A stretch of DNA of 59,113 nt from an uncultured Lentisphaeria bacterium (GTDB taxonomy: Bacteria; Fidelibacterota; UBA8477; JABMPR01). The position numbers were made by a program, and so were the translations under genes. The stretch is taken from positions 1 to 59,113 of the forward strand of contig CAYXZO010000005.1 of the NCBI GenBank assembly GCA_964469505.1, given 5' to 3'. This document shows positions 21,748 through 48,595 of the stretch, one piece after another; within the stretch, counting starts at the first letter, position 1; every line of letters starts with the position of its first letter. Under the pieces are notes generated by a model, which was given only the letters and a program-made list of their open reading frames with translations, had not been told where the DNA came from and did no database searches.

Positions 21748-22869
21748 ATGCATATGAAATCCCATTTGTTGAAGTTAGCCTTGAAATATCTCTGGCCAAT
21801 GGCCTTTATCATCTTTGCTTGTGAACAACCTAAACCCTGGAACGGATCGGAACTAATAGACAGTCCCTTTCAGACGGTTTCGGAAACTCTATTAGTTTCT
21901 CGAGCTCAGGTCAGTGCGATAAACGATTCCTTTCAGTGGTCCGAAGCTGATCGGGTTTATCTAGGTAACTATCGCGGCGCCACTGGAGCTTTTTTCATAA
22001 AATTTTCGGTTCCGGATAGCATCAGAAGTCTGGCTCCCGATAGTATCCGACTACAATTGCGTTTAGGCGTAACATATTACGATAGCAGCATTCTTAATGC
22101 TGATAGCCTTAAAATAATGGTTGTGCTTTTACCTGATTTTAATGATCTCTCCGTATCCCGACTGATCCCGGACAGCGCTTTCACCCATTCCACTTTGCCT
22201 TTATTAAAGCAAATCCAGGTCATTCAGTTTTCTTTGGATACGTTGTCACACTTTACTAGTCGTGACACATTTGCCATTGGCCTATTCTCACCGGATAGCG
22301 GTATGGCTCAGCCACTATTTACCCCTGCAGCGGGAAGTGCTTTTAGACCGTTGATCCACTGGTACACTCAGGTTGACACTGATTCCGCAGCGGTATTTAG
22401 CTTGACCATAGACAGTACCCAGGTGGTATTTCAGGCACCAGAAGGCGCGATGGATTCAGGATTTGTGGTGGATGGACTGGTAGGTACCGGTTTTTCAATC
22501 CAAGCCGATATGGGTAATGACACCTCCCTGTTCGAACATCTACTGGAGGGCAAGCTGGAAATCCAATGGGATTCGGTGGCCAGCTATTTCCCCGCTGCAG
22601 CTGACAGCGGTAAAGTGGCGCTTACAATCGAGCTGCGAGAACCTGTCTACAATGGTAAAATGACGCTGCAATTGGGAGCGGCGGACCTGGACACGGCAGT
22701 TTATGACATAACCAATCTTATCGCTCCGGTGATCACCGGTGGCGATTCTCTGTTGACGGTGGAGGTTCGTCCTGTCAGCTCCTCGATTGCGGTACCCCAA
22801 GCTGTTTTAGCGTCAACTGATTTCCCGGTGAAGATATATCTATCTCTTGCTCAGAGGGTTAAACAGTGA
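21748..22869 (+). CDS. Hypothetical beta-rich lipoprotein (DUF4270-like by position and pattern)
   Basis: Lipobox IFAC; VYLGNY..ATGAFFIKF, DSIRLQL; follows the short GlgA-like gene as in Bacteroidota. Confidence 0.6.
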   Translation: MHMKSHLLKLALKYLWPMAFIIFACEQPKPWNGSELIDSPFQTVSETLLVSRAQVSAINDSFQWSEADRVYLGNYRGATGAFFIKFSVPDSIRSLAPDSIRLQLRLGVTYYDSSILNADSLKIMVVLLPDFNDLSVSRLIPDSAFTHSTLPLLKQIQVIQFSLDTLSHFTSRDTFAIGLFSPDSGMAQPLFTPAAGSAFRPLIHWYTQVDTDSAAVFSLTIDSTQVVFQAPEGAMDSGFVVDGLVGTGFSIQADMGNDTSLFEHLLEGKLEIQWDSVASYFPAAADSGKVALTIELREPVYNGKMTLQLGAADLDTAVYDITNLIAPVITGGDSLLTVEVRPVSSSIAVPQAVLASTDFPVKIYLSLAQRVKQ

Positions 22870-24161
22870 AAACGAAAGCTTTATTAATATCCTGCGCGTT
22901 ATTGATTGGATTCGTCCCTCTCACTCTCCTGGCACAATCACCTCGCAATAGTTTGGCGTACGGTAGTTTTATAGAAAGTACCAATCCCGGGGCTCAGGCA
23001 TTAGGCCATGCCCTTACTGCTTACCATGATTCCATTCAAATCATTGGGGACAATCCGGCGGAGATATACGGTTTCCCGCAAGTAATTGCATTTTTCAGCT
23101 TTGAAAGCCACTCCACTCGTTGGTGGGCGGAAGATCAGGAAATAACCAATGTTGGGGGAGGGTTTGGCTATTTTTCTTTGGCTTTGCCTTTAGGGCAAAG
23201 TGCCGGTGCCCTGTTGAGTGTCGAACCCATCACTGATCTTTCTACCTTGATGAATTACAACGCTGATTCCACGACTAACTTCTCCATGGCTCAAGGGGGT
23301 GGGATTTGGTCAATGGCGGTGGCTTTTGGTTACCGTTTGAACAAAATGACCAGCCTCGGGATGCGGTGGCGGTATCTCTATGGCCTATTTGATCGCCGGG
23401 AAGTTTTGAATTATCCCAACACCCGATATCGCTACAATATTTATCAATTGAAGGGCAGAATCGCCGGGCAGAATCTTCAGCTTGGTATTCAATACGCCTT
23501 TACCCCCCGGTTTAGATTGGGCGGCACTTTTGAATGGGGTTTATCCACGCCAGTATTTGAGGGTAATGCTTATGATTACGATATACCCAGGAGCGCCTCC
23601 AATGACGACTATTTGGAGAAATGGCGCTATTTCCAAGCGGTCGGACAACCGGGTGGCGTAGTTGATACCATACCGTATAACGAGGTCTTAGAGGATTGGC
23701 CTTGGAATGTTGAGATTGGGTTTGCTTATCGCCGAGGTAATGGAGGGCATTTCCTATTGGCGCTGTCTCAACGCTACTTTCCCCAGGAAGCTTTCCGACA
23801 CTCAGAGATTTTCCGTCTACCTGAAGGTTGGCGTGGGATGTCTTCGGGAGCGCTTAAATTCGGATATTACCAAAAGGCTAGGGATGAGGGGAGCCGTTTC
23901 TGGCTTGATCGACTCTCGTGGCGGGTTGGTTTTATTGCCAGAAATCTATACGTAACACCGCGGTCCAACGACTATGTACGGAGTACGCTGATGGCGGTGG
24001 GGTTCTCACTACCGGCTAAACATCACCGGTACCGTATCTCACCAACCTTTGTTTATGAGCACTGGCAAGCTGCCGACGGTTTGCCGGAGGAAAGTCGTTG
24101 GAGTTTAGAGGTTGGGTTATATTTACAAGAAAAATGGTTTGGAAAATTCAGAAGGAGATGA
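22866..24161 (+). CDS. Outer-membrane beta-barrel, FadL/OmpP1-like
   Basis: Signal peptide, PGAQALGHA and NPA plug-like motifs, alternating amphipathic strands, aromatic-rich C-terminus. Confidence 0.7.
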   Translation: MKTKALLISCALLIGFVPLTLLAQSPRNSLAYGSFIESTNPGAQALGHALTAYHDSIQIIGDNPAEIYGFPQVIAFFSFESHSTRWWAEDQEITNVGGGFGYFSLALPLGQSAGALLSVEPITDLSTLMNYNADSTTNFSMAQGGGIWSMAVAFGYRLNKMTSLGMRWRYLYGLFDRREVLNYPNTRYRYNIYQLKGRIAGQNLQLGIQYAFTPRFRLGGTFEWGLSTPVFEGNAYDYDIPRSASNDDYLEKWRYFQAVGQPGGVVDTIPYNEVLEDWPWNVEIGFAYRRGNGGHFLLALSQRYFPQEAFRHSEIFRLPEGWRGMSSGALKFGYYQKARDEGSRFWLDRLSWRVGFIARNLYVTPRSNDYVRSTLMAVGFSLPAKHHRYRISPTFVYEHWQAADGLPEESRWSLEVGLYLQEKWFGKFRRR

Positions 24162-24174
24162 AAGGACACGCGCT

Positions 24175-25458
24175 ATGAAAAGTAGTTGGGGGTCTACCAT
24201 TGGATTATTGACCGCTTCTTTATTTGTGTTGGTAGCCGCTTGTCAACCGCCCAGTCCCAGCCCGGAAGAATTGGCGGCCCAGGAAAAGGCGCGGCGGGAC
24301 TCCTTGCGGCGGGCTAATCAGGGAAAATGTTTTAAATATTTGAGTTTTGCTACCGAGTACTACAAAAACAAGAGTTACCAGGACGCGCTGAATAATTATC
24401 GGCGTCTTTTCCAGCTCTCCTGCATCCAGATTGATAGCTCATTCGCTAAAGACGTATTTGCTTTTGTGGGCAATTGCTTCCGTGAGCTGGGACAAATGGA
24501 CTCGGCTTTATACTACTATGACAAAGGTCTGCTCATCATCCCTGAGGACAAATACTTGCGGCAAAGCAAGATTTTCACCCTTAAAAAGCTTGGAATGGAA
24601 GATTCGGTTCTAATCGAGCAGGCTGAATTGCTCAAATACGATTCGACCAACTTGGCTCTGGCCGGGAAATTGGCCGACGCCTATTTTGAGAATGAGCAGT
24701 TCGAAAAAGCCCGCGATATGGCCCAATTCATCCTGCGTCACGATCCTCACAATCGGGACGCCATGAATATTCTCAGAGAATCTCTCCTTGAGCTGGGTGC
24801 GGATATAATGGGAATCGTTAAGGCTCGCTATGACGAAAATCCAAATGATGTGGATAATGCGTTGGAGTACACCAACCTCTTGATGGATCGTGGAGAGAAC
24901 GAATCCGCTCTTAAAGTGTTAGAGAAAGTCCATCTAGCACATCCCAATAATCTCACCATTCTCCAAAAACTGGCTGATGTGTACAGTGCTATGGGTGACA
25001 CCGAGAAGCTCATTATAACCCTTAAAAAGCAGGAAAAGTTGAATAAAACCGACATCAATGTGAAGTTCGAACTCACCGCTGCGTACATTATGGCTGAGGA
25101 ATATTCCAGGGCCCTGTTCTGGGCTGATAAGGCCATTAAAGCTGACCCCAAAAATGGTCGCGCTTGGTATAACCGGGGAAAGGTTTACGAAGCAGTGGCC
25201 GATGCCTGCACCGGGGCCACCATCAGTTTCGACGATAAGCTGGTGTACCAGATGGCTCTGGAAGATTATCGGAAAGCCCAAAAACTGGGCTATGGCCGCG
25301 CTCAAGCTAAAATCGATTTCTTGAAAGAAGCTCGAGCTCCTCAGAAAGGGGACTGGTTCTTCAACGGACGGGATTATATAGATAAGAAGGGGTATGCCGC
25401 TCCCAAAAAAGACTGTTATAAATGGCTTAAACGCAAGGTGAAAGCACCCAAAGGTTGA
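24175..25458 (+). CDS. Tetratricopeptide-repeat lipoprotein
   Basis: ATG 24175 after AAGGA (ORF track start 24112); lipobox VAAC; multiple TPR pairs (ALYYYDKGL, ALFWADKAIKADPKNGRAWYNRG). Confidence 0.8.
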   Translation: MKSSWGSTIGLLTASLFVLVAACQPPSPSPEELAAQEKARRDSLRRANQGKCFKYLSFATEYYKNKSYQDALNNYRRLFQLSCIQIDSSFAKDVFAFVGNCFRELGQMDSALYYYDKGLLIIPEDKYLRQSKIFTLKKLGMEDSVLIEQAELLKYDSTNLALAGKLADAYFENEQFEKARDMAQFILRHDPHNRDAMNILRESLLELGADIMGIVKARYDENPNDVDNALEYTNLLMDRGENESALKVLEKVHLAHPNNLTILQKLADVYSAMGDTEKLIITLKKQEKLNKTDINVKFELTAAYIMAEEYSRALFWADKAIKADPKNGRAWYNRGKVYEAVADACTGATISFDDKLVYQMALEDYRKAQKLGYGRAQAKIDFLKEARAPQKGDWFFNGRDYIDKKGYAAPKKDCYKWLKRKVKAPKG

Positions 25459-25895
25459 ACAAAAAGGTTATAATCGGCTCCGATCACGCTGGGTTTGCTG
25501 CCAAAGAGCAGCTTAAGCAAATTCTCAGCGGATGGGGGTACACGGTCAAGGACGTTGGCTGCGAGAGTGATACTAGTTGTGACTACCCGGACTATGCCCA
25601 GGCTGTGGCGCGGGGCATTTTGCAGGAGGACTTTGACCGGGGTGTGCTCATCTGCGGGACGGGGATCGGTATGAGCATTGCAGCCAACCGTTTCCCGGGT
25701 ATCAGAGCTGCGCTGTGCACCTCCGAGGAACACGCCCGTCTGAGCCGCTTGCACAATGATAGTAACGTTCTATGCCTGGGAAGCCGTCTTCAAACGGTGG
25801 ACGCAATGCAAAATATTCTGAAGGTCTGGTTGGACACCGCTTTTGCCGGGGGTCGTCACCTGCGACGGATTCAGAAGATTGAGAATAGGGGGTAA
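25455..25895 (+). CDS. rpiB: Ribose-5-phosphate isomerase B
   Basis: [53 protein letters not shown]. Confidence 0.96.
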
Positions 25896-25897
25896 TT

Positions 25898-27202
25898 ATG
25901 AGTGCTTTAGCCCATCTGGCCAATTTTGATCCAGCTGTCTACCGAGCCGTTATGCAGGAGCGGAATCGGGAGCACAGCACTCTGGAAATGATTGCCTCGG
26001 AGAATTTTGTGAGCAGGGCCGTATTGGAAGCGGCCGGAAGTGTTATGACCAACAAATATGCCGAAGGCTACCCCGGCAAACGGTATTATGGCGGTTGTGA
26101 AGCAGTGGACGAAGCGGAAAACCTGGCCCGGGAGCGAGCCAAACAGCTTTTTGGAGTTGAATATGTCAACGTACAACCCCATTCCGGCTCCCAGGCCAAT
26201 ATGGCTGTCTATTTCACTTTTCTCAAGCCAGGGGACACGTTACTGGGAATGGACCTGGCCCACGGAGGCCACCTGACTCACGGCAGCCCGGTAAATTTCT
26301 CAGGTCGGCTGTATAACGTAGTGTTCTACGGTGTCCATCCCGAGACCGGGTATATCGATTACGATCAAGTTCGGGATTTGGCTTTGAAACACCGACCCCG
26401 CTTAATTATTGCCGGCGCCAGTGCCTATCCCCGTTTTTATGATTACGCTCGTTTCCGGGAAATCGCCGATGAAGTGAACGCTTTCCTGATGGCTGATATT
26501 GCCCATCCTGCGGGCTTGATTGCAGCCGGGGTACACCCTGCACCCTTCGAACACTGTCACGTGGTAACCTCCACAACTCATAAGACTTTGCGTGGGCCCA
26601 GAGGGGGATTAATCCTGGTGGGCCAGGATTATGATAATCCGTTCGGAATCGTGGCCCCCAAGAGCGGGCGAATCCGGAAGATTTCTGAGCTGCTGGATTC
26701 CATGGTCATGCCGGGGATTCAGGGCGGCCCGTTGATGCATATAATAGCGGCGAAGGCTGTGGCTTTTGGAGAAGCCCTTAAACCCAGTTTTAAAGAATAT
26801 GCCCGCCGGGTGGTGGAAAATGCGAAGATCCTGGCAGAGGTGCTCTTGGAGCGGGGCTATGAGTTAGTTTCCAAAGGAACCGATAACCACCTCTTGCTGA
26901 TTGATCTCACCAATAAAGGCATATCAGGTAAAAAAGCGGAACGAGTGCTGGAAGCGGCTGGAATTACCGTAAATAAAAATATGGTGCCCTTTGATAAACG
27001 TAGCCCCCTGATTACCAGTGGTATTCGTATCGGTACCCCTGCTTTGACTACCCGCGGTTTCGGACCGGAAGAAATGCGACTGGTGGGCGAGTTTATCGAT
27101 CGGGTGCTTTCAAATCCCGATTCAGAAGAAACCCTCAGCGCAGTTCGCAAAAGGGTGCAAACCCTAGTGAGAGATTTTCCATTGTATCAGGACATCGAAT
27201 AG
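25898..27202 (+). CDS. glyA: Serine hydroxymethyltransferase
   Basis: [61 protein letters not shown]. Confidence 0.98.
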
Positions 27203-27205
27203 GCT

Positions 27206-27649: not shown

Positions 27650-27658
27650 ACCTCGCAG

Positions 27659-28802: not shown

Positions 28803-28832
28803 AACCGAATGCATCTTCTCATTCGGTTTTTT
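28803..28832 (+). terminator. Intrinsic terminator-like hairpin immediately before the porV RBS
   Basis: AACCGAATG-CATCTTCT-CATTCGGTT (perfect 9 bp) then TTTT; RBS AAGGAG follows at about 28838. Confidence 0.65.
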
Positions 28833-28847
28833 ATTGAAGGAGTACAT

Positions 28848-30146
28848 ATGAGCCTTAAAAAACTTTGCTTGTTAATACTGGTTTTGATGGGTACTTCCCT
28901 GGTGCGAGCCCAGGGGACTGCTAGCGCTATATTTTTACTGATTTCTCCCGGCGCCCGAGCGGGTGGAATGGGTGAAGCTCAAGTAGCCGTGGCTAACGAT
29001 TCCTATGCCAGCTATTGGAATCCTGCCGGTTTGGCGTTTCAAAAAGGAGTTGAGATTTCAGGGATGCACGTTAATTGGCTCCCGGGGCTGGTCAATGATA
29101 TGTACTATGACTTCCTGGCCATACGAGTCCCCGCACCTAGTTATTACGGTGTAGTTGGGGGCCACATCATTTATTTGGATGCTGGAAAACAAACATGGAC
29201 CGATGATCAGGGAAATGAATTAGGAACCTTCAGTACTTATTTTACAGCGGCGGCTCTGAGCTATGCGACTATGTTAAGTGATAACTCATCAATTGGATTC
29301 AATTTCAAGGTGGTCTATCAGCACTTAGCAGATAGAGGTGTGACCGTAGGTTCCGAAAACACCAATCCAATTGCCACCAGCCTTGGCGTGGATATTGGTT
29401 ACCTTAAGCGGCACTGGCTGAGTGACCGATTGGATTTCGGAGTCTTACTTTCCAACGTCGGTCCTAAAGTCACTTTTAATGACAAAGCTCAGGCAGATCC
29501 TATGCCCACCAACCTAAAGGTGGGATGGAACTGGCGGGTGATTAAAGGGCAATACAATACACTGAACCTGGTCTATGATGTGAACAAACTATTAGTAGCC
29601 AGCTATCCCGATATGGATTGGGATGGTGATGGATTCGTAGGCGGCTATGACCAGCATGGCAATAAATACATTGTCAATAACGAGGTTTTACAAGGTGATT
29701 ATAACGCCAAGGGGCAAAGAGAAACAGCCCATACCGATCCATGGTATCTGGCTTTGGTTACTTCCTGGTTGGACGACTGGTACCTGGGTGGGGATCGGGA
29801 TCTGGATAACGACAAGAAAATCGGGGGTTACAATGCCGATACGGTAGCTGTAGCTGGCGGCAAATACAATTCATTGGGGCAATTGGAGGTCGGTAACGCT
29901 AAGCAGAGAAGTTTCAGCGCTGAATTACGTTCACTGGTTCATAACATTGGTCTCGAATACTGGTATAATCAAATGTTTGCTATCCGAGGGGGATTCTATT
30001 ACGACTATGAAGGTAAAATCATTGCTCCGACGCTGGGAATCGGCTTGCGTTACGGCAACTACGGCTTTGACTTCGGCTATATAGTGGAGAAGCAGGATCA
30101 TCCCCTGAACAACACTATGCGCTTTTCGCTGCTCATCAAATTTTAG
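28848..30146 (+). CDS. porV: Type IX secretion outer-membrane barrel PorV family, with EF-hand-like insertion
   Basis: ATG after AAGGAG; AIFLLISPGARAGGMGEAQVAVANDSYASYWNPAGLA, YVNWLPGLVNDMYY-like region, NVGPKVTF, PMPTNLKVG, GLEYWYNQMFAIRGG, HPLNNTMRFSLLIKF with terminal Phe. Confidence 0.85.
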   Translation: MSLKKLCLLILVLMGTSLVRAQGTASAIFLLISPGARAGGMGEAQVAVANDSYASYWNPAGLAFQKGVEISGMHVNWLPGLVNDMYYDFLAIRVPAPSYYGVVGGHIIYLDAGKQTWTDDQGNELGTFSTYFTAAALSYATMLSDNSSIGFNFKVVYQHLADRGVTVGSENTNPIATSLGVDIGYLKRHWLSDRLDFGVLLSNVGPKVTFNDKAQADPMPTNLKVGWNWRVIKGQYNTLNLVYDVNKLLVASYPDMDWDGDGFVGGYDQHGNKYIVNNEVLQGDYNAKGQRETAHTDPWYLALVTSWLDDWYLGGDRDLDNDKKIGGYNADTVAVAGGKYNSLGQLEVGNAKQRSFSAELRSLVHNIGLEYWYNQMFAIRGGFYYDYEGKIIAPTLGIGLRYGNYGFDFGYIVEKQDHPLNNTMRFSLLIKF

Positions 30147-30159: not shown

Positions 30160-33030
30160 ATGAAACTTCGGCGAGTCCTGTTGGCGGGGGCCGCTATTGT
30201 TGCAGCCCTGGGAAATTCGAAAATCATTGCAGCTCCCCTAAACGCCCAGGAGCTGACAATTGCGGCCATTCGAATTTCATTTCAACCGGATCAGGACCCC
30301 GCAACCGCCGGAAATGGTCTCTTTGTGCTCTCCCCGGATTCACTCCCCGGTTGTTCCGAGCGACGCCTGGATCCGCCCCCACACGATAAAGAATATTTTA
30401 AAGACCACCTGAGAGCAGCCGCATTCTATTGGAGCAAGGTAAGCCGGGGAAACGTGACGATCGATACTTTACACTTGGCAATATTTCCACCTGGTGACAC
30501 TGCAGCCTATCAACTTGCTCATCCAATGTCATATTACCACCCATACATGGATTTGGGGGATACTCTATCCCATCTGGTGGAATTAATCCAGGAAGCGGTA
30601 AATCTGGCAGACGCCGATGTGGATTTCAGTGCCTTTAATACCTTTATTTTCTTTCATGCCGGCTTAGGAGGTGATTTCGCTTTCGTGCTGGATCCCACTC
30701 CCGGCAACATTCCCTCCACCTATTTAAGCCAATCAGATCTCGAAGCTTACGGGGGAATAGCAACTGACGAAGGACCGTTAACGAATGCTATTCTATTACC
30801 CGAAACCCAGAATTTTCTCCAATTTGCGGAAACTCGCACCCTTTTCAATCCCCAACCATGCAATTACCAGTTTGCCCTCAACGGTACGGTAGCGCTGTTG
30901 CTAGGATTCAGAATCGGCCTGACTCCGCTGTATGATCTTTATACCGGGAGAAGTCATGGCGGTCGCTTTGCTTTGATGGATCAGGGTAGCAATAATGCTC
31001 ATGGGCTGGTACCAGCTCCCCCCATGGCCTACAATCGAATTCAGGCCGGATGGGAAGAACCTCAGGTAGCCAATATCGGAGATAGTGTGAGTTTAGATAT
31101 TGATGGTCCACCGGTTAAAATTCCCATCGGTCCCGCGGAATACTATCTCATTGAAAATCGCCAACGCAACCTGGAGCAGCCTATCGGTTGGGAGACCTGG
31201 GTTGACAGCATAACCAGCGACACCTTTTCAGTACAGCTTTCTCCACGAGGGGTAGTGCTCCAGGTTGATGAACAAACGGCAGGACTGCCTGGAAACGGTT
31301 TGTTGATTTGGCATATTGCCGAATTCGCTCGTGGGCCTGATGATAATCCCAACGGCTTGGAACCGTATTTAATCAGCCTGGTGGAGGCCGACGGGGCACC
31401 GGATATCGGCTACCAGAGCCGGATTTTATTTGCCGATTTCCTGGAGACCGGCTGGTGGTTTGATCCCTGGTTTGCCGGAAACCAGGGGTGGTTCGATCTG
31501 AATCGTATCGAACCAGTAATAGGGGACAGTTTGCTGCGATTTACCTCTACCACCCATCCGGCAACCATAAGCAAGCGAGATTACCCAACCTATTTGCGGG
31601 TGGAGAATATCTCGGCTCCCGGGCGGACTATGCACTTCCGCGTTGGCTCCGATCGTGTTGTTCCTTTTCCTGAGGGAGCCGAATTAATTGGAATCGGAAG
31701 CGACTCCACGGGAGAGCCGCTGGTGTGGTTGGATGATGGTCAGGTTTATCTCGTCGGTTACAGTCTTACATCAGATACACTTAAGCCGATTGTTCAATTC
31801 TCCCGGAGACGTGTTTTTAGCTCACCTTCGGATAGTCTGATAGGTTTTTCGGATCCCATATTTGTGATCTTCAATGGCCGGGGTAATGCATTCTATAACT
31901 ATTTGACCGACACGCACATCGAGGATACTACGGGAGGCCCGGTCAAGCAAATTATCCGCACTGAGGATTCGCTTGCATATCTTGTCAGTAAAAACCAATC
32001 CAGTACGATTTTCACCATTCCTGTTGATCTGAGCGCTCCACCGACAGCCCAGGTTACCATTCCTTTGGAAGTGGAGCGTTTCTACCGCTTCGATCCGGAT
32101 TGGGCCTGGGCTACGTCAGATTCGTTGTATACTCCCGTTTCACATCCTTATGCCATTAGTGGAGACGTTTATCAGCCGGTTGAAGTTTTTGAAATGCAAC
32201 CTTCAAGTATGCATCGAACCCCAGTTGGATGGCTGTATGTGGATGAGGATAATCAGTTGGTATTCAGGGCAATAGGGGATACCATTAAAGTTCTGCGGAC
32301 TGCTTTTACCGGCACATTTCTACCTTTTGACATACCCACCGAGCAGGGGCTGGAGGGCATATTTTTTACCACCGGGTATGGTGAGGTCATCAGCAGTAGC
32401 GGTCTAGCGTATTATGGTTCTCCTTTCGTTCTGGATGGTGAACCGTTGGCAAGGCCGGTCATCGTTTCAGCTTTTGATGCTCCAATCGCTTTCTTTTTCC
32501 CTTATGAGGATGGCTATGGGGTTTATGATCTACAGGGTAAGAGGTTGGAAAGAACAATCCTCCCTGAGAGTCCCGCTATTAAAGATGTGTTCTATTCAAA
32601 TCGTGAAACGTTAATAGCTAGCGAATTTTATCTCCTGCGTCTACCCCTTGAGAGTGAATCATCAATTAATCCAAACTTCGCCATAAATTCCCTTCGGGAA
32701 CGAGCAGCTTGGTGGAGTGATTCGTCATTAACTCATGAGGTGGCTTTGATTGAGCCCGGCTCAGGATTCATCTATCCCAATCCGATTCGGGGAAAGACTG
32801 CCACCGTCCGCGTGCATTTAGGGGCGGTAACCTCCTGGCGGATACGCATTTTTACCACTGCGGGCAACGAAGTTATCGATGTTGCCCCTGTGCCCGTTTC
32901 GTCTCATGCTGTAAATGAGTGGCGCTGGGATGTGAGTAATCTCTCCAACGGGCTTTATCTGATACAGCTCGAGGCGGAAGGAAATGGGAAAAAAGAACAG
33001 GTTTTAATCAAAGCGGCGGTGGTGCGGTGA
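30160..33030 (+). CDS. T9SS type A CTD-containing protein with M6 (immune inhibitor A)-like domain lacking HExxH
   Basis: IFFHAGLG, GTVALLLGFRIGLTPLYD in place of GVFAHEYGHxLGLPDxYD, ALMDQGS, EYYLIENRQ, GLLIWHI, LVEADG; C-terminal IYPNP...NGLYLIQL...KAAVVR. Confidence 0.8.
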   Translation: MKLRRVLLAGAAIVAALGNSKIIAAPLNAQELTIAAIRISFQPDQDPATAGNGLFVLSPDSLPGCSERRLDPPPHDKEYFKDHLRAAAFYWSKVSRGNVTIDTLHLAIFPPGDTAAYQLAHPMSYYHPYMDLGDTLSHLVELIQEAVNLADADVDFSAFNTFIFFHAGLGGDFAFVLDPTPGNIPSTYLSQSDLEAYGGIATDEGPLTNAILLPETQNFLQFAETRTLFNPQPCNYQFALNGTVALLLGFRIGLTPLYDLYTGRSHGGRFALMDQGSNNAHGLVPAPPMAYNRIQAGWEEPQVANIGDSVSLDIDGPPVKIPIGPAEYYLIENRQRNLEQPIGWETWVDSITSDTFSVQLSPRGVVLQVDEQTAGLPGNGLLIWHIAEFARGPDDNPNGLEPYLISLVEADGAPDIGYQSRILFADFLETGWWFDPWFAGNQGWFDLNRIEPVIGDSLLRFTSTTHPATISKRDYPTYLRVENISAPGRTMHFRVGSDRVVPFPEGAELIGIGSDSTGEPLVWLDDGQVYLVGYSLTSDTLKPIVQFSRRRVFSSPSDSLIGFSDPIFVIFNGRGNAFYNYLTDTHIEDTTGGPVKQIIRTEDSLAYLVSKNQSSTIFTIPVDLSAPPTAQVTIPLEVERFYRFDPDWAWATSDSLYTPVSHPYAISGDVYQPVEVFEMQPSSMHRTPVGWLYVDEDNQLVFRAIGDTIKVLRTAFTGTFLPFDIPTEQGLEGIFFTTGYGEVISSSGLAYYGSPFVLDGEPLARPVIVSAFDAPIAFFFPYEDGYGVYDLQGKRLERTILPESPAIKDVFYSNRETLIASEFYLLRLPLESESSINPNFAINSLRERAAWWSDSSLTHEVALIEPGSGFIYPNPIRGKTATVRVHLGAVTSWRIRIFTTAGNEVIDVAPVPVSSHAVNEWRWDVSNLSNGLYLIQLEAEGNGKKEQVLIKAAVVR

Positions 33031-36000
33031 AACGACCCCTGGGGTTGTTTTGCATCATTCTGCTACTTGGGGTAAAACTTTCCGCCCAAGCCCGTTTTAC
33101 TCACTCTGAGCTGACCTGGCGTACCTTGGAAGGGGAGCACTTTGTAGTGCATTACCATCAGGGCACCGCCTGGACCGCCACTGAAGTTTTAAATGTGGCG
33201 GAGGACATCTATAAGCCGATAACCGAACTATACCAATACCAACCTGAAAACAAGACTCATCTAATCATCTGGGATACGGATGATTTCAGCAATGGTGCTT
33301 CGTACTACTTTGATAACAAGATAGATATATGGGCCATGCCTTTGGATTACAAGCTAAGGGGCTCTCATTATTGGTTACGTGATGTGGTAACCCACGAGTT
33401 TACCCACATCGTCAGCTTACGAGCGGCCCGGAAATTCAAAGGTTCAATCTCCGCCAGCTATTTTCAGTTCATTCAATACGAACCGGAACGGCGGGACGAT
33501 GTGTTATACGGCTATCCCAACGCCCTGGTATCCTATCCTTTGCCCAGCGTGGTTGTACCCATGTGGTGGGCGGAAGGCGTGGCGCAACATCAGGCCAATG
33601 GAAGCAGATACGATTACTGGGACAGTATTAGGGATATGATTCTCCGGGACCGCTGGTTGCATAAACGTCTTCTGTCCTTTAATGAAATGGATGGTTTCGG
33701 CAAAGGGGGAATAGGCAATGAAAGCGTGTATAACCAGGGGTTCTCTTTTGTGAATTACCTTGCAGAACATTATGGTGATGAAATCCTGGAAAGAATCACG
33801 GAGCGCTTGACGAATCCGTGGAACTATTCGTTTTATAAAGCTCTTTCAGAGCTTACAGGTCGCTCTAAAACGCAACTTTACCGAGACTGGATTGCTTACT
33901 TAACCGAAAGATTCAAAGCCGAGCTACCTAGCACGGATGAACAAACTTCCGTCTCGATTTTTCAAACCCGCGGGTCAGCCAATTTCTATCCGCGACATCA
34001 TTCAGCCTCAGGACGTTTGGCATTCATCTCCAACATGGGGGAGGCCTATTTCGGTAGAACGGCCCTGTTTGTACAACAGCCTGGTGAAGAACCGCGACGA
34101 GTAACCGCTGCTGCCGGTTTTGCTTGGAGTCCAATTACCGACACCCTAGTGGTGGTTAAAAAAAGCTTCTATGACCAGGGAATTCCAGGCGGTTATTCAT
34201 TCAAAGATACAGAAGGGCCCCATTTTTCCTTTTTGCACAAGAAGGTTAAGGCTACGTGGCGATTGCCATTGCAGGGCTCTCGCTATTTTGATCTTTATCT
34301 GTTGCATCCCGATAATCCTGACAAACTTAGAAGGTTGACCAACGGTGCTCGGGCGAAAAACCCGGTTTGGTCACCTGATGGCAAACAAATAGCGTTTATT
34401 AATCTCCGGGATGGCACCAATAACATTTGTATTGTGGAACCGGCTCACCCCGATAGCGTACGGCAGCTAACCCGATTTACCCCCGGTACCCAGATTTACA
34501 CCTTATCCTGGTCTCCTGATGGGAGCCGGCTGTTGTTTGACCGGGCGACAGGGTACAACCGGGATATTTACATGTACGATTTCAGAACGAAGGAAGTGCG
34601 ACCAGTATTTGCCGAGAAGTGGGACGAGCGAAATCCTTTTTGGATCACCGATTCCACCCTGTTGTTCAGCGATGATCGTACCGGAATCTTTAACCTTTAC
34701 TGGGCTGAGCTGAACCTGGGCAAGGTTCGGCAGCTTACCGCCGTTAATGGGGGAGCTTTTCAGGCTGAACTATGGCAGGATACACTTTTTTTCAGCTACT
34801 ATGACAGTTTGGGCTACAAATTAGCCTATCTTCCCTTGAAAAAGGCTTTATGGAAGGCTGCTGAATCAGGTTCTCTTAGCTACTTAAGCAGAATACTTAA
34901 GGCCGACTATGTGCGGGAATTGGCGCCGCGTCAGGGAGTGCCCTATCGTTTCCAGGCCGGCCCCATGTTGATTGCACCTCGGTTACAAGTGGAGTATGAT
35001 GCCGCCAAAGGTAGTACTTATCTCAAACCTGGGTTTTATTTCTTTTCCAGTGAATGGATAAACAAATTCAACCTTCTGGGGGGATTTGATTTCGGGTTTA
35101 ACAAAGATTTGGACTTTTTCTTTCTAGCCGAATATCGCGGTTTTCGCCCCCTCTTACGCCTGGAATTCTACCGACTGGTGCGCAATACACAGGAGGAATT
35201 GAGTTATCTCAATGGTATCTACAAGGTTCAAAGCCGACTTCAGTTTACCATGACTCAGGGGGTAGCGTCCATAGAATTGCCCATTGGCGGCAGCCACAAT
35301 CTTATGGGAGATTTCACGTTAACCAATTATAACACATACCTCGCGCCTCATGTGCTGAACGGACTTCCGCTGGGGGGGATCAGCTATGATTATTTCAAGG
35401 GATGGGATGCCGGTTTGATCTATCGAGGAGACTGGTTGAAACCTGAACCGTCCCAGGACATCAACCCCCAGGGATTGCAGGTGGAGATCGGCGCGCGACG
35501 CAATCATCATTTGTTCTTGAGCGGATATGGCTACAACGAAGATACGGGAAATTGGGGTAATATTTACGACACCTTCGATTATTGGCGATGGAGTTTCAAT
35601 GTTTTCTACGCCCGTTCCTTGCCCGCAATCTTAGGTGGGAAAATTGGTCTGCGGGGAATAGGCGCTGGACTAAGTCGTAATTCAATCGATTCCTTTTTCT
35701 ACGAGTTTGGTGGTGGAGCTCCAGGGCTTAGAGGTTACCCCTACTTTTCCCTTGGTGGAACCAGAAAGTTAATTTTTTCTGGCTTCTGGCGTCGGCCGCT
35801 CTTTCGGGATGCCTATTGGAAGGTAGGGCATTATACATTGAAGGATGTTTATTTCGGTATTCATTGGCAAGTAGGGACGGCATGGGTCCCCGATAGCTCT
35901 TTGTGGAAACCTGGCTTGGATTTCAATGAAAGAGGTCGTGAACTTCTGAGAGATCTTAATCAGGCCTCCTGGTTACAGGATTTTGGATTCAGCTTGCGTG

Positions 36001-36149
36001 TGGGAGGTTTTTCGTTTTACGCCTATCCCACAGCGCTGGAAATCTCCGCATACTACGCACCTGAACAATTAGCTTACCGGGAAGACCCGGATATTAAATA
36101 CGGACAGGAATGGCGCTTTTATTGGAGCCTTTTATTTGCATTCAATTAA
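33027..36149 (+). CDS. Gluzincin-like peptidase plus TolB/PD40 propeller plus C-terminal outer-membrane barrel
   Basis: Signal peptide; VVTHEFTH...WWAEGVAQ; NPVWSPDGKQIAF, LSWSPDGSRLLF PD40 repeats; amphipathic strands ending YWSLLFAFN. Confidence 0.78.
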   Translation: MKRPLGLFCIILLLGVKLSAQARFTHSELTWRTLEGEHFVVHYHQGTAWTATEVLNVAEDIYKPITELYQYQPENKTHLIIWDTDDFSNGASYYFDNKIDIWAMPLDYKLRGSHYWLRDVVTHEFTHIVSLRAARKFKGSISASYFQFIQYEPERRDDVLYGYPNALVSYPLPSVVVPMWWAEGVAQHQANGSRYDYWDSIRDMILRDRWLHKRLLSFNEMDGFGKGGIGNESVYNQGFSFVNYLAEHYGDEILERITERLTNPWNYSFYKALSELTGRSKTQLYRDWIAYLTERFKAELPSTDEQTSVSIFQTRGSANFYPRHHSASGRLAFISNMGEAYFGRTALFVQQPGEEPRRVTAAAGFAWSPITDTLVVVKKSFYDQGIPGGYSFKDTEGPHFSFLHKKVKATWRLPLQGSRYFDLYLLHPDNPDKLRRLTNGARAKNPVWSPDGKQIAFINLRDGTNNICIVEPAHPDSVRQLTRFTPGTQIYTLSWSPDGSRLLFDRATGYNRDIYMYDFRTKEVRPVFAEKWDERNPFWITDSTLLFSDDRTGIFNLYWAELNLGKVRQLTAVNGGAFQAELWQDTLFFSYYDSLGYKLAYLPLKKALWKAAESGSLSYLSRILKADYVRELAPRQGVPYRFQAGPMLIAPRLQVEYDAAKGSTYLKPGFYFFSSEWINKFNLLGGFDFGFNKDLDFFFLAEYRGFRPLLRLEFYRLVRNTQEELSYLNGIYKVQSRLQFTMTQGVASIELPIGGSHNLMGDFTLTNYNTYLAPHVLNGLPLGGISYDYFKGWDAGLIYRGDWLKPEPSQDINPQGLQVEIGARRNHHLFLSGYGYNEDTGNWGNIYDTFDYWRWSFNVFYARSLPAILGGKIGLRGIGAGLSRNSIDSFFYEFGGGAPGLRGYPYFSLGGTRKLIFSGFWRRPLFRDAYWKVGHYTLKDVYFGIHWQVGTAWVPDSSLWKPGLDFNERGRELLRDLNQASWLQDFGFSLRVGGFSFYAYPTALEISAYYAPEQLAYREDPDIKYGQEWRFYWSLLFAFN

Positions 36150-42242: not shown

Positions 42243-42247
42243 GGATT

Positions 42248-43989: not shown

Positions 43990-44388
43990 GTGTTGAATTT
44001 TACTACTCAGGAGCGCCGCATCCTTTTATTCCTGGCAGTATCCCTGCTGTTGGGGGGTATTCTGCGTTGGCGACAAAATCACCAGCAATTACGGGAATTG
44101 GAGGCCATAACTCCAGCACACATTGCACCACCACCCTTACAAATTCTGACTGCACCGCAAGACTCCGACTTGATCGCGAATCCGCTACCCAATTTGATCG
44201 ATATAAATGAGGCTAATGAACGGGAATTGGCAACTCTGCCAGGAATTGGGTTGAAACTGGCGCGTAGAATCGTTACTTATCGCCAAAAGCATGGGAAATT
44301 CAAACATTTGCACGATATTCAGCGCGTTCGGGGAATCGGTCCTGCATTGTACCGCCGGATTGCGCCCCGAATTACAATTTCGAAATAG
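43990..44388 (+). CDS. comEA: ComEA family helix-hairpin-helix DNA-binding protein
   Basis: N-terminal TM; IDINEANERELATLPGIGLKLARRIVTYR, LHDIQRVRGIGPALY. Confidence 0.88.
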   Translation: MLNFTTQERRILLFLAVSLLLGGILRWRQNHQQLRELEAITPAHIAPPPLQILTAPQDSDLIANPLPNLIDINEANERELATLPGIGLKLARRIVTYRQKHGKFKHLHDIQRVRGIGPALYRRIAPRITISK

Positions 44389-44397
44389 GGAGGTCCT

Positions 44398-46620
44398 GTG
44401 GCTAAAGACATTTTCGGCAACCACAAAGTAAATACCGCCATCATCATCGTATTGGCTTTTATGTTTGTCTCAGTCATCTATTTCCCCGATCGAATTTGGA
44501 GACATGAGCGGGAGCTTCGGGATATTGCCCGTTTCAGGATGGAGGCCATCAATCAAGGGGAAAAACTGTTCTATATCTTGACCGAGGAATACACCACTAG
44601 GCCAGATATCCTGTTCCATGTAGTAAACGCTTCCCGCGATAGTGCCCTGGAGAGACTCGGCGATTCCAATGCAACATTCCCAGAGACTCTGCGGTACGTC
44701 TTTCCAGGTAAACAGCTTACCATTAAATACACTCCTGAGTACCGTCAGAAATATGTCGAAGAACACGTAGCCTTATTCAAGAAACTAAAACCCAATCATT
44801 ATTTCCCACCAGAACAGGCCAAAGCCTTCATCGAAACAGTGAAGGTGTACTTCGATCGGGGCAATTTCGTAGGCGAACAATCCGTGCGGCTTGGGAAAGA
44901 CAGTCTGAGATTTACTGTCCCCGACAAGTATGACATCCTTTATCAGAACGGCAAATTTAGGATGTTTAACGTACTCACCGGTAGTGCTACTGAAGATCCT
45001 GGGTTCGCTAATCCATTGGTTAATGCGGTCCTGGATTCCCTGGAACGCAATCCGGATTTAAGTGGAGAGGTCGTATTTACCGGATTGTACCATGAGCCGA
45101 TAACCTTTTCATATACTGTTCCCGACAATTTCTCGCAGCTACTGGAACGCTCTAAAACCCAGCTTAAAAAATTCTTTAAAATCGATCCTCTGGACTCTCT
45201 GGCATACGGTGACACTCTTTACAGCATAGCTCTGGAGAAGTTTTTCACTTTCGACTCCATTCCGGAGCAATTCGAGATTACTTACCGGGATACCACCGGG
45301 GATACTGTGATCGTGAATGTCCCGGTTGATATGGAAGGGATGCAGGACGGTCTTGATAAACGGCGTAACACTCTTTATAAAGCACTCTCCGGTGGCTATC
45401 GCGAGCCCAATCCCATTATCGCTCAGAAAATCATCGATGCCGTCAAGGACTCTTTGGCCAGCGATTCGGTGTTTATCGGCACTCATAAGATTACCCTAGA
45501 CTTGTCTGAAATTCCCTTCAAAATCAGAATTGACCGTACCATTCCGCTGAACCAAATCCAGATCAATAAGGATATGTACACCCGTCTGGAACCGTGGAAG
45601 ATTGGAGTAAATCTGGATTCGGTAGCTGTGGAAGCCGTGGAGTATGTGGCTGATACATTGATGAAGAGCAGGGATTTCAAAGATTGGCAAATCTATGCTG
45701 CTGAAGGGGATTCCCTTAATTTGTTCATCCCCGAAGACTTCCTGAGAATGTACGATGACATGAATCTGCGTTTGTATAAGGCCCTAACCGGTGAATACAC
45801 CAACATTCACGACTATGCATACAATGTGATTCGTAAAGTTGAAGCTTTAGCACAGCAGGACTCCGGTTCTTATTTCGGTGAACATGTGTTAGATATTCCC
45901 GCTGATACGATCGTGGCGCGGGTTGGCTCCGACTATCCGGAAATATATGACTCTACCTTCGTGGTTTATAAAGATACGGTGGTCCAACTTCCCGATAGTA
46001 GTTTTTACGGTGTTTGGTTCCGGCTGCAGAGATATGCCGTACCGGTAGAACAGCCAGACACTCTGCCCTTCGTAAAAGCTGTTGACGGCCAGTTGTATTA
46101 CAATTTCCATCAAGCTGACTCCACCCAGGATTTCATGGTGTTTGAGTTGCGGGATAAACGACACGAAAAGGCCTTCTGGGGGGACAATCGTTATCTGGTG
46201 AGCTTCAACAACGACAGCACTCTGGATGCGGTTTTCCTCTTGATCAGTGACACCACCGGAGCTGATTCCGCCTTGCAAGCTAGTTGGAAACCCTTCACCG
46301 TCGTTTCACCTGAATTCGTGGTGGGGCCGGAAGAAAAGAGTCTGATTATGGCCAAAGACTCTTTCTACGCCTGGGTTGACACAGTTGTAGCTTTAAAGTA
46401 CCGTAAAATTCAGATTAAAAAGCCGTACAAGTTCGCTAATGAACTCAAATACTGTCCTGTGACCGGTTTACCCTTTAGAATTACTGTTAGGTACATGGTC
46501 AACCTGCGGATTGAATCGCCCATCGAGGAGAAAGTCACTTTCAGACGCTATCTGTTCTTCACGGAAGTCGATACCAACCACGGCTATATCCAGGACGGTG
46601 AGCCTAGCTGGTCCAAGTGA
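44398..46620 (+). CDS. Large membrane-anchored hypothetical protein with diverged internal repeats
   Basis: 740 aa, single N-terminal TM, recurring LY(K/N)(A/V)L(T/S)G motifs, C-terminal CPVTGLPF...HGYIQDGEPSW. Confidence 0.75.
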   Translation: MAKDIFGNHKVNTAIIIVLAFMFVSVIYFPDRIWRHERELRDIARFRMEAINQGEKLFYILTEEYTTRPDILFHVVNASRDSALERLGDSNATFPETLRYVFPGKQLTIKYTPEYRQKYVEEHVALFKKLKPNHYFPPEQAKAFIETVKVYFDRGNFVGEQSVRLGKDSLRFTVPDKYDILYQNGKFRMFNVLTGSATEDPGFANPLVNAVLDSLERNPDLSGEVVFTGLYHEPITFSYTVPDNFSQLLERSKTQLKKFFKIDPLDSLAYGDTLYSIALEKFFTFDSIPEQFEITYRDTTGDTVIVNVPVDMEGMQDGLDKRRNTLYKALSGGYREPNPIIAQKIIDAVKDSLASDSVFIGTHKITLDLSEIPFKIRIDRTIPLNQIQINKDMYTRLEPWKIGVNLDSVAVEAVEYVADTLMKSRDFKDWQIYAAEGDSLNLFIPEDFLRMYDDMNLRLYKALTGEYTNIHDYAYNVIRKVEALAQQDSGSYFGEHVLDIPADTIVARVGSDYPEIYDSTFVVYKDTVVQLPDSSFYGVWFRLQRYAVPVEQPDTLPFVKAVDGQLYYNFHQADSTQDFMVFELRDKRHEKAFWGDNRYLVSFNNDSTLDAVFLLISDTTGADSALQASWKPFTVVSPEFVVGPEEKSLIMAKDSFYAWVDTVVALKYRKIQIKKPYKFANELKYCPVTGLPFRITVRYMVNLRIESPIEEKVTFRRYLFFTEVDTNHGYIQDGEPSWSK

Positions 46621-46641
46621 GGACCGGCCCGACGGACAATC

Positions 46642-47583
46642 ATGCTGGGAATTGCCGTCGACAACCAAGCATTGCACTATGCCCAGTTAGTGGACACCGG
46701 CGGGATAACTTCCATTGAAAGTGTTGGTTCGCTCGCACTGACAATTCCCACGGAAGCCTTTCTCACCGCTCCGCTACCGGCTTCATTCACCCATACCTTG
46801 GTCCAGCTTCGGGAAAAACTGGAGTTTCCCGATCGGCGGGTAATCTGCGTACTCCCCATGAGATGGGTGCCCCATTGTTTTCAACGAATGGATAAAGAAT
46901 TACCCGAATCCGATTGGCAGAAATTTTTGGACTGGCAAGGCGGCACCATCATGGAGGTGAATCCCCGTGAATATCGGTTGATACACCAGGAACTTGAGTT
47001 GGACAACGCCACCGACGTAAGGTATTTCATAAGTGTGGCATTGCCCGTAAAACTGCACATCAAACTGAAAAATGCTTTCGAGCAAGCCGATTGGAATCTG
47101 GAAAAACTCATTCTGGAATCGGAGGCGCTTGGTAACTATTTGTTACTGGATTCCATCGAGGCTGAAAGTCAGGATCTCACGGGGCTCTTCAGAACCCGTA
47201 ACCCCCAGGAAGGTCAATTTCTTCTTTTTAAAAACCAAGAATGGGTGGGGGAGACCTACTTGTTTCGTGACGCCGAAGAAACCTGGCGCACTGAGGTTGT
47301 CTGGACGGCCGTGAACGACACCTTCGCCATAGTCGATGAAGTGCGTGATGCCCTTAATGGCTTACCATCCACCCAGGACTCCCCATTTTTAAACTGGTAT
47401 TACCTGTGTCAAGCGGACGATATGCCTGAGTGGCGTGAAAATCTGGAACATTTGGGGGTGGGCCGACCGCTCTTCATGGAAGATTTATTTACGCTCAGAG
47501 ATATGCCGGAGGAAAAGCTCTCTACCTTGGCCGGCGCCATGGGAGCCTTAATTCCTTTATTGCCGTTAAATCATGCGGATTAA
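46642..47583 (+). CDS. PilM-like (actin-fold) protein, divergent
   Basis: MLGIAVDNQALHYAQL and FISVALP...AFEQADWNLEKLILESEAL resemble PilM segments; followed by an INLL-starting gene. Confidence 0.5.
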   Translation: MLGIAVDNQALHYAQLVDTGGITSIESVGSLALTIPTEAFLTAPLPASFTHTLVQLREKLEFPDRRVICVLPMRWVPHCFQRMDKELPESDWQKFLDWQGGTIMEVNPREYRLIHQELELDNATDVRYFISVALPVKLHIKLKNAFEQADWNLEKLILESEALGNYLLLDSIEAESQDLTGLFRTRNPQEGQFLLFKNQEWVGETYLFRDAEETWRTEVVWTAVNDTFAIVDEVRDALNGLPSTQDSPFLNWYYLCQADDMPEWRENLEHLGVGRPLFMEDLFTLRDMPEEKLSTLAGAMGALIPLLPLNHAD

Positions 47584-48595
47584 CCTACTCACCGATAAGG
47601 GTGTTCTGGCGGCAGTCCCTTTTCAGAGGCCGGAAGCCCCGGCTCTACCTGAAATAGAACCGATACCTTCAACAAAACCATCGGTAGCACCCCCTACCAA
47701 AGCGATTCCCTGGCGACTGGTAGCCATAGGTTTCTCTCTGGCTGCGGTTGTATTTCTACTGGTGGGCTATGCAACGAACTGGTTCGATGGAGGGCATTTC
47801 TTTGGCTTGAATCGTCCTTCACAGGAGAGTGGAGAAATAAAGTACGCAACGATCAAACAAGTTCTCCTGGAAGACAGTTTGCGTCATGTTCTAAGAGATA
47901 GAGTGTTACCCGATTCTCTCTTCAATGCTCTATTGCCGCCGCCTTCGAGAGATACGGGATTCATGTACGCTGAGATTCTACTGGAGACCTTGGCAACGAC
48001 AAGCGGACCCGTTGAAACGCAGACCACGGCTCCTAAACCCCAGCCAGTCTACGGAGGTCCCATTTGGCAACAAGAGAATCGCGGATTGCTGCTTTTAGCA
48101 GCCCACCTGGCGCAAACAGTGGATTCTTTGCAAATCCAGGGAAAGGTTAAACTTTCCAAGAGCAGGATAGATTTGCAGTTGACGGTCCCCAATAGCCGCT
48201 CTAAAACCACCCTTGATAGTATTCTCCAGCGTTTTTCAGGGGGACGGTTTGCCTGGCGCCTTGAGGGGGAGACTCTTCGACTGAACCAACCTTTAAACTT
48301 GATTTTACCTCCTTTAGCTTCTCCCGGCTATCATGGAGGCCTTTGGACACTCCTGGATTCGCTGCTCCTGCCGTATGATCGTTGGCTGGAGGCCCTGGAA
48401 GTAGATACGGCGCGGGGAATTGCCAATAACCCGGCTCAGTTCTATTTCCGCATGTCACCCAAAACAGCCGCAGAGATGTTCCGGACTTGGGCTAACAGTC
48501 CTGCTAATTACGCTATTGACTCCCTTTATCTGGTTGTTACTGCCCGCGACCAAAGCGTGACTGTTGCACTTCATTTTCTGCAAGGAGAGCTATGA
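47573..48595 (+). CDS. PilN-like bitopic membrane protein, divergent
   Basis: Starts MRINLL (PilN INLLP PilM-binding motif), Pro-rich linker, single TM, periplasmic region. Confidence 0.5.
   Translation: MRINLLTDKGVLAAVPFQRPEAPALPEIEPIPSTKPSVAPPTKAIPWRLVAIGFSLAAVVFLLVGYATNWFDGGHFFGLNRPSQESGEIKYATIKQVLLEDSLRHVLRDRVLPDSLFNALLPPPSRDTGFMYAEILLETLATTSGPVETQTTAPKPQPVYGGPIWQQENRGLLLLAAHLAQTVDSLQIQGKVKLSKSRIDLQLTVPNSRSKTTLDSILQRFSGGRFAWRLEGETLRLNQPLNLILPPLASPGYHGGLWTLLDSLLLPYDRWLEALEVDTARGIANNPAQFYFRMSPKTAAEMFRTWANSPANYAIDSLYLVVTARDQSVTVALHFLQGEL

Follow-up and report, generated by a model that had tools for sequence, protein, structure and literature searches.

Exported proteins of a Fidelibacterota-like contig are saturated with the D-(S/T)-hydrophobic sequon and are probable targets of a Bacteroidota-type O-glycosylation system

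Proteins predicted to leave the cytosol and encoded on contig CAYXZO010000005.1 (positions 1 to 59,113; this whole stretch of 59,113 nt is called the window below) carry the tripeptide D-[ST]-[AILVMT] far more often than their amino acid composition predicts, whereas cytoplasmic proteins encoded on the same DNA carry it at about the expected frequency. This tripeptide corresponds to the acceptor sequon of the general O-glycosylation system of Bacteroidota. The explanation that we favour, and consider likely from the sequence evidence given below, is that a system of the Bacteroidota type operates in this organism, a probable member of Fidelibacterota, and is used there at unusual density.

Open reading frames were called across the whole window and sequons were recounted for each protein. 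Compartments were assigned by a crude rule of our own, based on N-terminal hydrophobicity and used in place of SignalP: proteins with a signal peptide, a lipobox or a single N-terminal anchor formed the exported class (n = 18), and 27 proteins formed the cytoplasmic class. The number of sequons expected was computed from the composition of each individual protein and compared with the observed number by a Poisson test, and z scores were obtained by shuffling within proteins. The exported class contained 86 sequons against 19.5 expected (4.4-fold, Poisson p = 1.9e-28), whereas the cytoplasmic class contained 18 against 15.0 (1.2-fold, not significant) and multi-pass membrane proteins had a ratio of 0.8. 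When the 4 richest exported proteins were left out, 33 sequons against 11.2 were still found (2.9-fold, p = 1e-7). Individually, 10 of the 18 exported proteins were significant at p < 0.05, compared with 1 of the 27 cytoplasmic ones. Asp was directly followed by Ser or Thr in 26.6% of cases in exported proteins and in 8.9% in cytoplasmic proteins, and the sequon density in the exported class was 1.0 per 100 aa. With an expectation drawn from pooled amino acid frequencies (a review-style metric), the ratio was 4.9 for the window and 3.6 for its relatives. These results confirm that the sequon excess in the exported proteins of the window is real, strong, and far beyond chance. An earlier note on this DNA had reported D-[ST] dipeptides counted by hand (19 in a lipoprotein of 373 aa, 27 in a protein of 740 aa, 17 in a type IX secretion system (T9SS) cargo protein, 8 in a protein of 340 aa, and 2 in LeuS); all of these counts were exact, and the excess in exported over cytoplasmic proteins that it proposed survives the control for composition. 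The proteins concerned, and those used for comparison, are the following (sequons are full tripeptides, observed against expected):

2003-2920, minus strand: 305-aa protein with an N-terminal hydrophobic segment; 5 D-[ST], 3 sequons against 0.6 (p = 0.016)
16513-18294, plus strand: PBP2, bitopic, periplasmic; 3 sequons against 0.8
19564-20778, plus strand: TPR lipoprotein, 404 aa; 7 D-[ST], 4 sequons against 1.0 (p = 0.012)
21748-22869, plus strand: 373-aa lipoprotein with a lipobox (...IIFAC); 19 of its 27 Asp stand before Ser or Thr, 10 full sequons against 1.9
22866-24161, plus strand: BamG-like outer-membrane protein, 431 aa; 3 D-[ST], all of them full sequons, against 0.6
24112-25458, plus strand: TPR protein with an N-terminal anchor or signal, 448 aa; 6 D-[ST], 4 sequons against 1.0 (p = 0.013)
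28809-30146, plus strand: PorV, the T9SS outer-membrane barrel (Pfam PF19572, E = 3.5e-24); 1 sequon against 1.1
30160-33030, plus strand: T9SS cargo, an M6-like inactivated metalloprotease with a C-terminal sorting domain (Pfam PF18962; NCBIfam NF052323, TIGR04183), 956 aa; 17 D-[ST], 14 sequons against 3.0
33027-36149, plus strand: exported protein with PD40/TolB-like propeller repeats, 1040 aa; 12 D-[ST], 6 sequons against 2.1 (p = 0.02)
44398-46620, plus strand: bitopic membrane protein with an N-terminal membrane helix, 740 aa; 27 D-[ST], 22 sequons against 2.5
46642-47583, plus strand: 313-aa protein lacking a hydrophobic segment; 1 sequon against 0.9
47573-48595, plus strand: 340-aa bitopic protein, membrane segment at about residues 47-66; 8 D-[ST], 7 sequons against 0.8
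55878-58376, plus strand: LeuS, the cytoplasmic comparator; 2 D-[ST] among 45 Asp, against 3.9 expected

Within-protein shuffling gave z scores for D-[ST] and for the full sequon of 7.8 and 6.2 in the 373-aa lipoprotein, 8.7 and 13.5 in the 740-aa protein, 3.5 and 6.5 in the T9SS cargo, and 4.9 and 7.2 in the 340-aa protein. In the bitopic proteins, every sequon lies beyond the membrane segment: all D-[ST] sites of the 740-aa protein come after residue 80, and those of the 340-aa protein all follow residue 100, on the side predicted to face the periplasm. The 313-aa protein, encoded in the same gene string as these 2 saturated bitopic proteins, is not enriched and serves as an internal cytoplasmic control. 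The orthologue of the 340-aa protein in a related locus (L088) has 8 sequons against 2.2 expected. Paralogy among the sequon-rich proteins was considered and rejected, the sole match being one between TPR proteins, that encoded at 19564 and BamD. The 313- and 340-aa proteins had been described as PilM-like and PilN-like; neither had a match in Pfam (E ≤ 5), NCBIfam (E ≤ 0.1) or the sequences of the PDB, so that neither label has family support. The competence parts proposed along with it come down to ComEA, which was identified (PF12836), the others having no family support. Starting the LeuS frame at its first ATG, which gives 832 aa, probably makes it too long: calls on matching contigs are 816 to 824 aa, and the 832-aa product is absent from the records. 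A partial NF052323 score places the T9SS cargo in the family of T9SS-dependent M6-like inactivated metalloproteases, so that it probably lacks protease activity.

The tripeptide was resolved position by position in the exported class. In the position before [ST]-hydrophobic, only Asp was enriched (4.30-fold); Glu stood at 0.79, Asn at 1.11, and all other residues between 0.3 and 1.5. In the middle position, with Asp before it and a hydrophobic residue after it, enrichment was limited to Ser (4.96-fold) and Thr (3.44-fold), with a DS to DT ratio of 81:45. After D-[ST], the enriched residues were Leu (6.6-fold), Thr (5.5-fold), Ile (4.4-fold), Val (3.4-fold), Ser (3.1-fold), Phe (2.0-fold), and Ala (1.9-fold), and Lys, Arg, and Gln did not occur at all. 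The reversed tripeptide reached 1.2-fold, and the position matrices of the cytoplasmic proteins were flat. In the glycoproteomes of Bacteroidota, Asp is required almost without exception, Glu is not accepted, Ser has a slight advantage over Thr, and the following residue is L, I, V, T, A or S in about 90% of sites, with F and G found occasionally (PMC12871550). The profile of the window agrees with this published sequon at all 3 positions, as the earlier note had proposed.

The sequons are also conserved. The family of the 740-aa protein is small, with only 26 homologues in a database of 5.8 billion clusters, all of about 740 aa. Each of 21 aligned homologues contains 19 to 31 D-[ST] against 7 to 10 expected, and 13 of the 27 positions in the window protein are kept in all 21, at 40% to 49% identity. 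Kept sites interchange inside the motif (DSI/DSL/DTV/DTL; DTT/DTL/DTV/DTI), and Asp conservation is 74% within D-[ST] compared with 44% for the remaining Asp. A motif that is fixed while the residues within it are free to vary is the pattern predicted by selection on a recognition tag. The gene of this protein has a constant place between comEA and 2 unannotated genes, and in AT-rich marine relatives (loci L001-L005) a 246-aa version is found that matches only its N-terminus. The 373-aa lipoprotein was an orphan in a word-indexed homologue search, and an exhaustive HMMER search returned 3 real remote homologues (23% to 26% identity) and 2 spurious matches. The 3 homologues have 12 to 13 sequons each against about 2.4 expected, and of just 26 invariant columns, 6 are D-[ST] columns shared by all 4 sequences. 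Positional orthologues in 2 related metagenome-assembled genomes (MAGs) have 13 sequons against 2.4 (L090) and 12 against 2.4 (L091). The lipobox Cys is followed by acidic residues and Pro in all lipoprotein homologues (C-E-Q-P, C-E-D-P, C-S-E-P, C-D-E-P).

We modelled both proteins with AlphaFold2. The model of the lipoprotein was too poor to be used (mean predicted local distance difference test, pLDDT, 45). That of the 740-aa protein (pLDDT 74.5) consists of a membrane helix followed by 7 alpha-beta-beta-alpha repeats of about 67 residues each, and a Foldseek search with it against the PDB gave no match at E ≤ 0.001. The D-[ST] sites lie in helix (10), strand (5), and coil (12), indicating that no single structural role accounts for them; a role such as helix capping was therefore ruled out. 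Of the 7 repeats, 5 have a D-S/T-L towards the end of helix 1, and 3 have a sequon where strand 2 starts.

To place the organism, we analyzed the closest relatives of its proteins. The named homologues of the 740-aa protein belong to Candidatus Marinimicrobia/Neomarinimicrobiota, except for one named only as a bacterium and one from a MAG labelled Lentisphaeria, whose protein stands under Neomarinimicrobiota in nr. The best 60 PBP2 matches (52% to 57% identity) are likewise from Candidatus Marinimicrobia/Neomarinimicrobiota wherever they are named, except for the same Lentisphaeria-labelled MAG; the next ones (44% to 47% identity) are from KSB1, Calditrichaeota, and Zhuqueibacterota, and no Bacteroidota were found among the best 120. 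The phylum Marinimicrobia, which is currently named Fidelibacterota by NCBI (also Marinisomatota) and belongs to the Fibrobacteres-Chlorobi-Bacteroidetes (FCB) group, comprises widespread marine bacteria with few cultured members. Gene order is shared with Marinimicrobia MAGs across both halves of the window, which also encodes markers of the FCB envelope, namely PorV, a T9SS sorting domain (PF18962/TIGR04183), a GWxTD protein, and the BamG-like protein. PorV and a cargo protein with a type A C-terminal sorting domain together place the organism among those with a T9SS. The names of the PBP2 and 740-aa relatives, the synteny, and the FCB envelope markers thus indicate that the organism is a divergent member of Fidelibacterota or of a close sister lineage, as judged from these relationships, and not a member of Bacteroidota. 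The Bacteroidota-like system of the earlier note therefore stands as far as motif, compartment, and conservation are concerned, and the phylum that the note implied is replaced by Fidelibacterota. The window matches IMG contigs of sample 3300009408 and a 110,848-bp contig of sample 3300023503, the former having been taken from iron-oxidising microbial mats at Lo'ihi Seamount (PMC5520029).

PBP2 and the BamG-like protein link the window to other FCB phyla. In one column of the PBP2 alignment, DT[L/M/T] is present in 5 of 5 Bacteroidota and DS[V/I] in 43 of 60 sequences of the KSB1/Calditrichota/Zhuqueibacterota group, and the corresponding residues in E. coli and Azospirillum are QQT and QET. 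A second sequon, in one C-terminal loop, is found in 4 of 5 Bacteroidales, in 34 of the same 60 sequences, and in the window protein (DTL489). PBP2 sites that are common to several phyla suggest that the system is older than Bacteroidota. The main Marinimicrobia clade has lost these shared columns and has one invariant DSS instead. The surface lipoprotein BamH of F. johnsoniae is O-glycosylated and is anchored by BamG, and the pair is reported across most FCB phyla (PMC12611786). The 431-aa protein matches the NCBIfam model NF053685 for BamG over its full length with E = 7.5e-27 and 94 bits, below the cut-off of 250, and has a weak match to PDB chain 9hiv_F (E = 1.5e-4). Its gene is translationally coupled to that of the 373-aa lipoprotein, whose stop codon overlaps its start (ATGA), an arrangement that hints at a likeness to the Bacteroidota-type β-barrel assembly machinery with BamG and BamH. 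By this analogy, the lipoprotein may be a BamH analogue and the surface partner of the BamG-like protein; no sequence match of the lipoprotein to BamH or to any PDB chain was detectable. FCB membership, the T9SS, the BamG-like parts, and the shared PBP2 columns together make the presence of such a glycosylation system phylogenetically plausible.

Other lineages were compared with the window using the same pipeline. As a negative control, 248 exported-class proteins from 72 loci outside the FCB group gave 1.04-fold (1.01-fold with the review-style metric). As a positive control, we used 250 kb of Bacteroidota DNA (Prevotella, Parabacteroides, and Flammeovirga), which consisted of chromosome-like records filed as plasmids, and 2 loci from Bacteroidia/Flavobacteriales MAGs. 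Here the exported proteins contained 127 sequons against 120.6 expected (1.05-fold; 1.21-fold with the review-style metric), or 0.31 per 100 aa. Among lineages nearer to the window, the exported-class ratio was 3.3 in the nearest relatives, 2.8 in the main Marinimicrobia clade (group-A relatives), 2.0 in AT-rich marine MAGs, and 1.2 in KSB1 and Zhuqueibacterota loci; without the proteins that have at least 6 sequons, the first 3 values fell to 2.1, 1.4, and 1.1. Since Bacteroidota carry the motif at about chance frequency, saturation is a property of this lineage, and the idea that it is a signature of the known system, from which the earlier note had started, does not hold. A third region, which surrounds a gldA-like ABC gene and lies outside the stretch chosen in that note, gave 1.58-fold in relatives at 63% to 65% identity. 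In 24 further loci of this region (48% to 56% identity), 241 sequons were found against 146.4 expected (1.65-fold, p = 5e-13), and the cytoplasmic proteins stood at 1.00- to 1.04-fold. This indicates that the excess is real outside the selected window, but smaller. Separately, the metagenome loci L154, L121, L172, and L175, which have 50% to 53% identity to the gldA-like ATPase and cover 10 to 20 kb each, showed an exported-protein excess of 2.7- to 3.5-fold.

In the model that we favour, exported proteins would be under strong positive selection to gain and keep D-(S/T)-(L/I/V/T/A/S). After crossing the inner membrane via Sec, they would meet a periplasm-facing oligosaccharyltransferase with Bacteroidota-like acceptor specificity, which would read the tripeptide and move a lipid-linked glycan onto its Ser or Thr. 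Lipoproteins, periplasmic proteins anchored in the inner membrane, and T9SS cargo would in this way already carry glycans on arrival at their final place. With one conserved site per 27 to 37 residues, the 373-aa lipoprotein and the 740-aa protein would be very densely glycosylated envelope components. As guesses, such density might shield or stabilise the envelope proteins of a bacterium living in a vent mat rich in metals, or might provide a protein-borne glycan coat. A more far-reaching version, in which D-(S/T)-hydrophobic O-glycosylation would be an older FCB trait that one Fidelibacterota lineage of hydrothermal iron mats has pushed to an extreme (dedicated envelope proteins with 10 to 22 conserved sites, amounting to a protein-borne glycan coat), is put forward tentatively, as possible rather than probable.

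Such a system would share with that of Bacteroidota the acceptor D-(S/T)-(L/I/V/T/A/S/M), restricted to non-cytoplasmic proteins, the kinds of target (lipoproteins, periplasmic domains of inner-membrane proteins, and T9SS cargo), and the keeping of sites in orthologues, including the PBP2 positions common to FCB phyla. It differs in its host (Fidelibacterota), in the density and strength of the signal (1.0 compared with 0.31 sequons per 100 aa, 4.4- compared with 1.05-fold), in having certain proteins with 10 to 22 conserved sites, and in that a locus of the LFG type was not found in the sequence examined. With the PglL/PilO-type systems of Neisseria, Acinetobacter, and Burkholderia it would have in common that a lipid-linked glycan is transferred en bloc, in the periplasm, to Ser or Thr of many exported proteins; in those systems the sites are not tied to a strict sequon and are difficult to predict (PMC12871550), whereas a strict tripeptide appears to be under selection here. 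The PglB system of Campylobacter (D/E-X-N-X-S/T) is also a general bacterial system with an acidic residue in its sequon, but that sequon is not enriched in the window: [DE]xNx[ST] occurred once in exported proteins against 3.9 expected, and Nx[ST] stood at 1.02-fold.

Several observations weigh against glycosylation as the explanation. All the evidence consists of sequence statistics, from which the presence of glycans on the sequons, the enzyme, and the donor are inferred. Genes for the machinery are missing from the DNA at hand: neither a Wzx flippase nor a cluster of glycosyltransferases, and no GT-C protein, YfhO-like or otherwise, is encoded in about 79 kb (the window and its 20 kb flanks), and the same machinery was not found in about 250 kb from relatives, a small sample that does not amount to genome-wide absence. 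Bacteroidota, which are known to glycosylate the motif, show almost no enrichment, so that the strength of the signal here needs an additional explanation. The excess is uneven, with PorV, BamD, MreC, and FtsX not enriched, and the window had been chosen for its rich look; the unselected 20 kb flanks gave 1.8-fold, from 5 proteins only. In the main Marinimicrobia clade, most of the signal comes from 2 or 3 protein families, and PBP2 is depleted of canonical sequons (0.29-fold), keeping one invariant DSS. Finally, the 27 sites of the 740-aa protein are not all independent, since its repeats share some of them at matching positions.

The machinery search was also negative at a finer level. A locus of the LFG type (metG, wzx, and glycosyltransferases) was found neither in the window and its 20 kb flanks nor in the loci of relatives, which cover a small fraction of the genome. 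The multi-pass proteins of at least 380 aa in the Fidelibacterota sequence examined were transporters and RodA only, with no WaaL/PglL-like protein among them. In Bacteroidota, the oligosaccharyltransferase itself is still unidentified, YfhO being the predicted candidate (bioRxiv 10.64898/2026.07.27.740950). In the literature searched, no paper linked Marinimicrobia or Fidelibacterota with O-glycosylation. One sugar-related gene of the window is:

12978-14048: sugar-1-phosphate nucleotidyltransferase, not specific to glycosylation

These missing genes, together with the lack of comparable enrichment in real Bacteroidota, leave room for a different reader of the tripeptide in the periplasm, one that does not glycosylate and whose likeness to the Bacteroidota specificity would be convergent. 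Candidates would be another modification of Ser or Thr, a chaperone or quality-control protease, or a sorting factor, and any of them would account equally well for the compartment specificity and the conservation. We consider this unlikely, because the match to the glycosylation sequon extends to all 3 positions, including the preference of Ser over Thr and the order of the residues that follow, because the organism lies within the superphylum that hosts the glycosylation system, and because PBP2 sequon positions are common to Bacteroidota and other FCB phyla; moreover, no alternative system of this kind is known.

The concentration of sequons in few proteins points to another possibility, namely a structural or compositional habit of some lineage-specific envelope families (those of the 740-, 373-, and 340-aa proteins) in the absence of any general system. 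A helix-end or hairpin motif would then have been multiplied by repeats, and the window excess would result from small numbers and selection. The recurrence of D-S/T-L towards the end of helix 1 and of sequons where strand 2 starts, the drop to 1.4- and 1.1-fold in group-A relatives and AT-rich marine MAGs once proteins with at least 6 sequons are removed, and the modest value of the window flanks are all as expected from such a habit. It would leave unexplained, however, the 2.9-fold excess that persists without the 4 richest proteins and is spread over non-homologous TPR lipoproteins, the BamG-like protein, PBP2, and the propeller protein. The sites moreover occupy helix, strand, and coil, neither Glu nor Asn substitutes for Asp, the exported proteins of other bacteria are flat, and the independent gldA-like region shows about 1.6-fold at high significance. 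We therefore regard a family habit as improbable too. An artefact at the DNA level, such as a GANTC methylation site, which the genetic code necessarily creates where Asp-Ser is written GAY-TCN, was ruled out as extremely improbable by codon use and by the GANTC count, because all 6 Ser codons are used after Asp in their usual proportions (AGY 32 of 79, 40%, the same share as for Ser overall), Thr is enriched as well, GANTC is neither enriched (255 against 230 expected) nor phase-locked, and genes for cytoplasmic proteins in the same DNA show no excess.

Sequon-directed O-glycosylation has been described as unique to Bacteroidota (PMC12871550; bioRxiv 10.64898/2026.07.27.740950). If glycosylation is indeed the explanation, a second phylum would use such a system, with much stronger selection on the motif, and the origin of the system would lie deeper in the FCB superphylum. 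Fidelibacterota would then have heavily glycosylated envelope proteins. The sequon load, which varies steeply between sub-lineages (from about 1.1-fold to more than 4-fold), would provide a natural contrast for comparative genomics and phylogenetic profiling, and such profiling could find the oligosaccharyltransferase that has remained unidentified for more than 15 years. Counting a motif with a control for compartment can detect systems of this kind from a single contig.

Other features of the region were noted. About 5 kb past the right end of the window (locus L085, 1-4912), there is a gliding-type ABC set consisting of an ATPase, an ABC-2 permease, a GldG-like ABC_transp_aux protein, and a DUF4340 protein, in keeping with a gliding/T9SS envelope of the FCB kind. 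Immediately upstream of the gene for the saturated lipoprotein, positions 20791-21624 encode a 277-aa protein that consists solely of the N-terminal catalytic domain of starch synthase (Glyco_transf_5). Its exact length and position are kept in relatives (L090 14428-15261; L091 14309-15142), and full-length glycogen synthases (473 to 492 aa) are present elsewhere in related loci. A stand-alone RNase H/RVT_3-like protein of 208 aa (12355-12981) is kept in L090, and its gene overlaps both the end of the GWxTD gene and the start of the sugar-1-phosphate nucleotidyltransferase gene.

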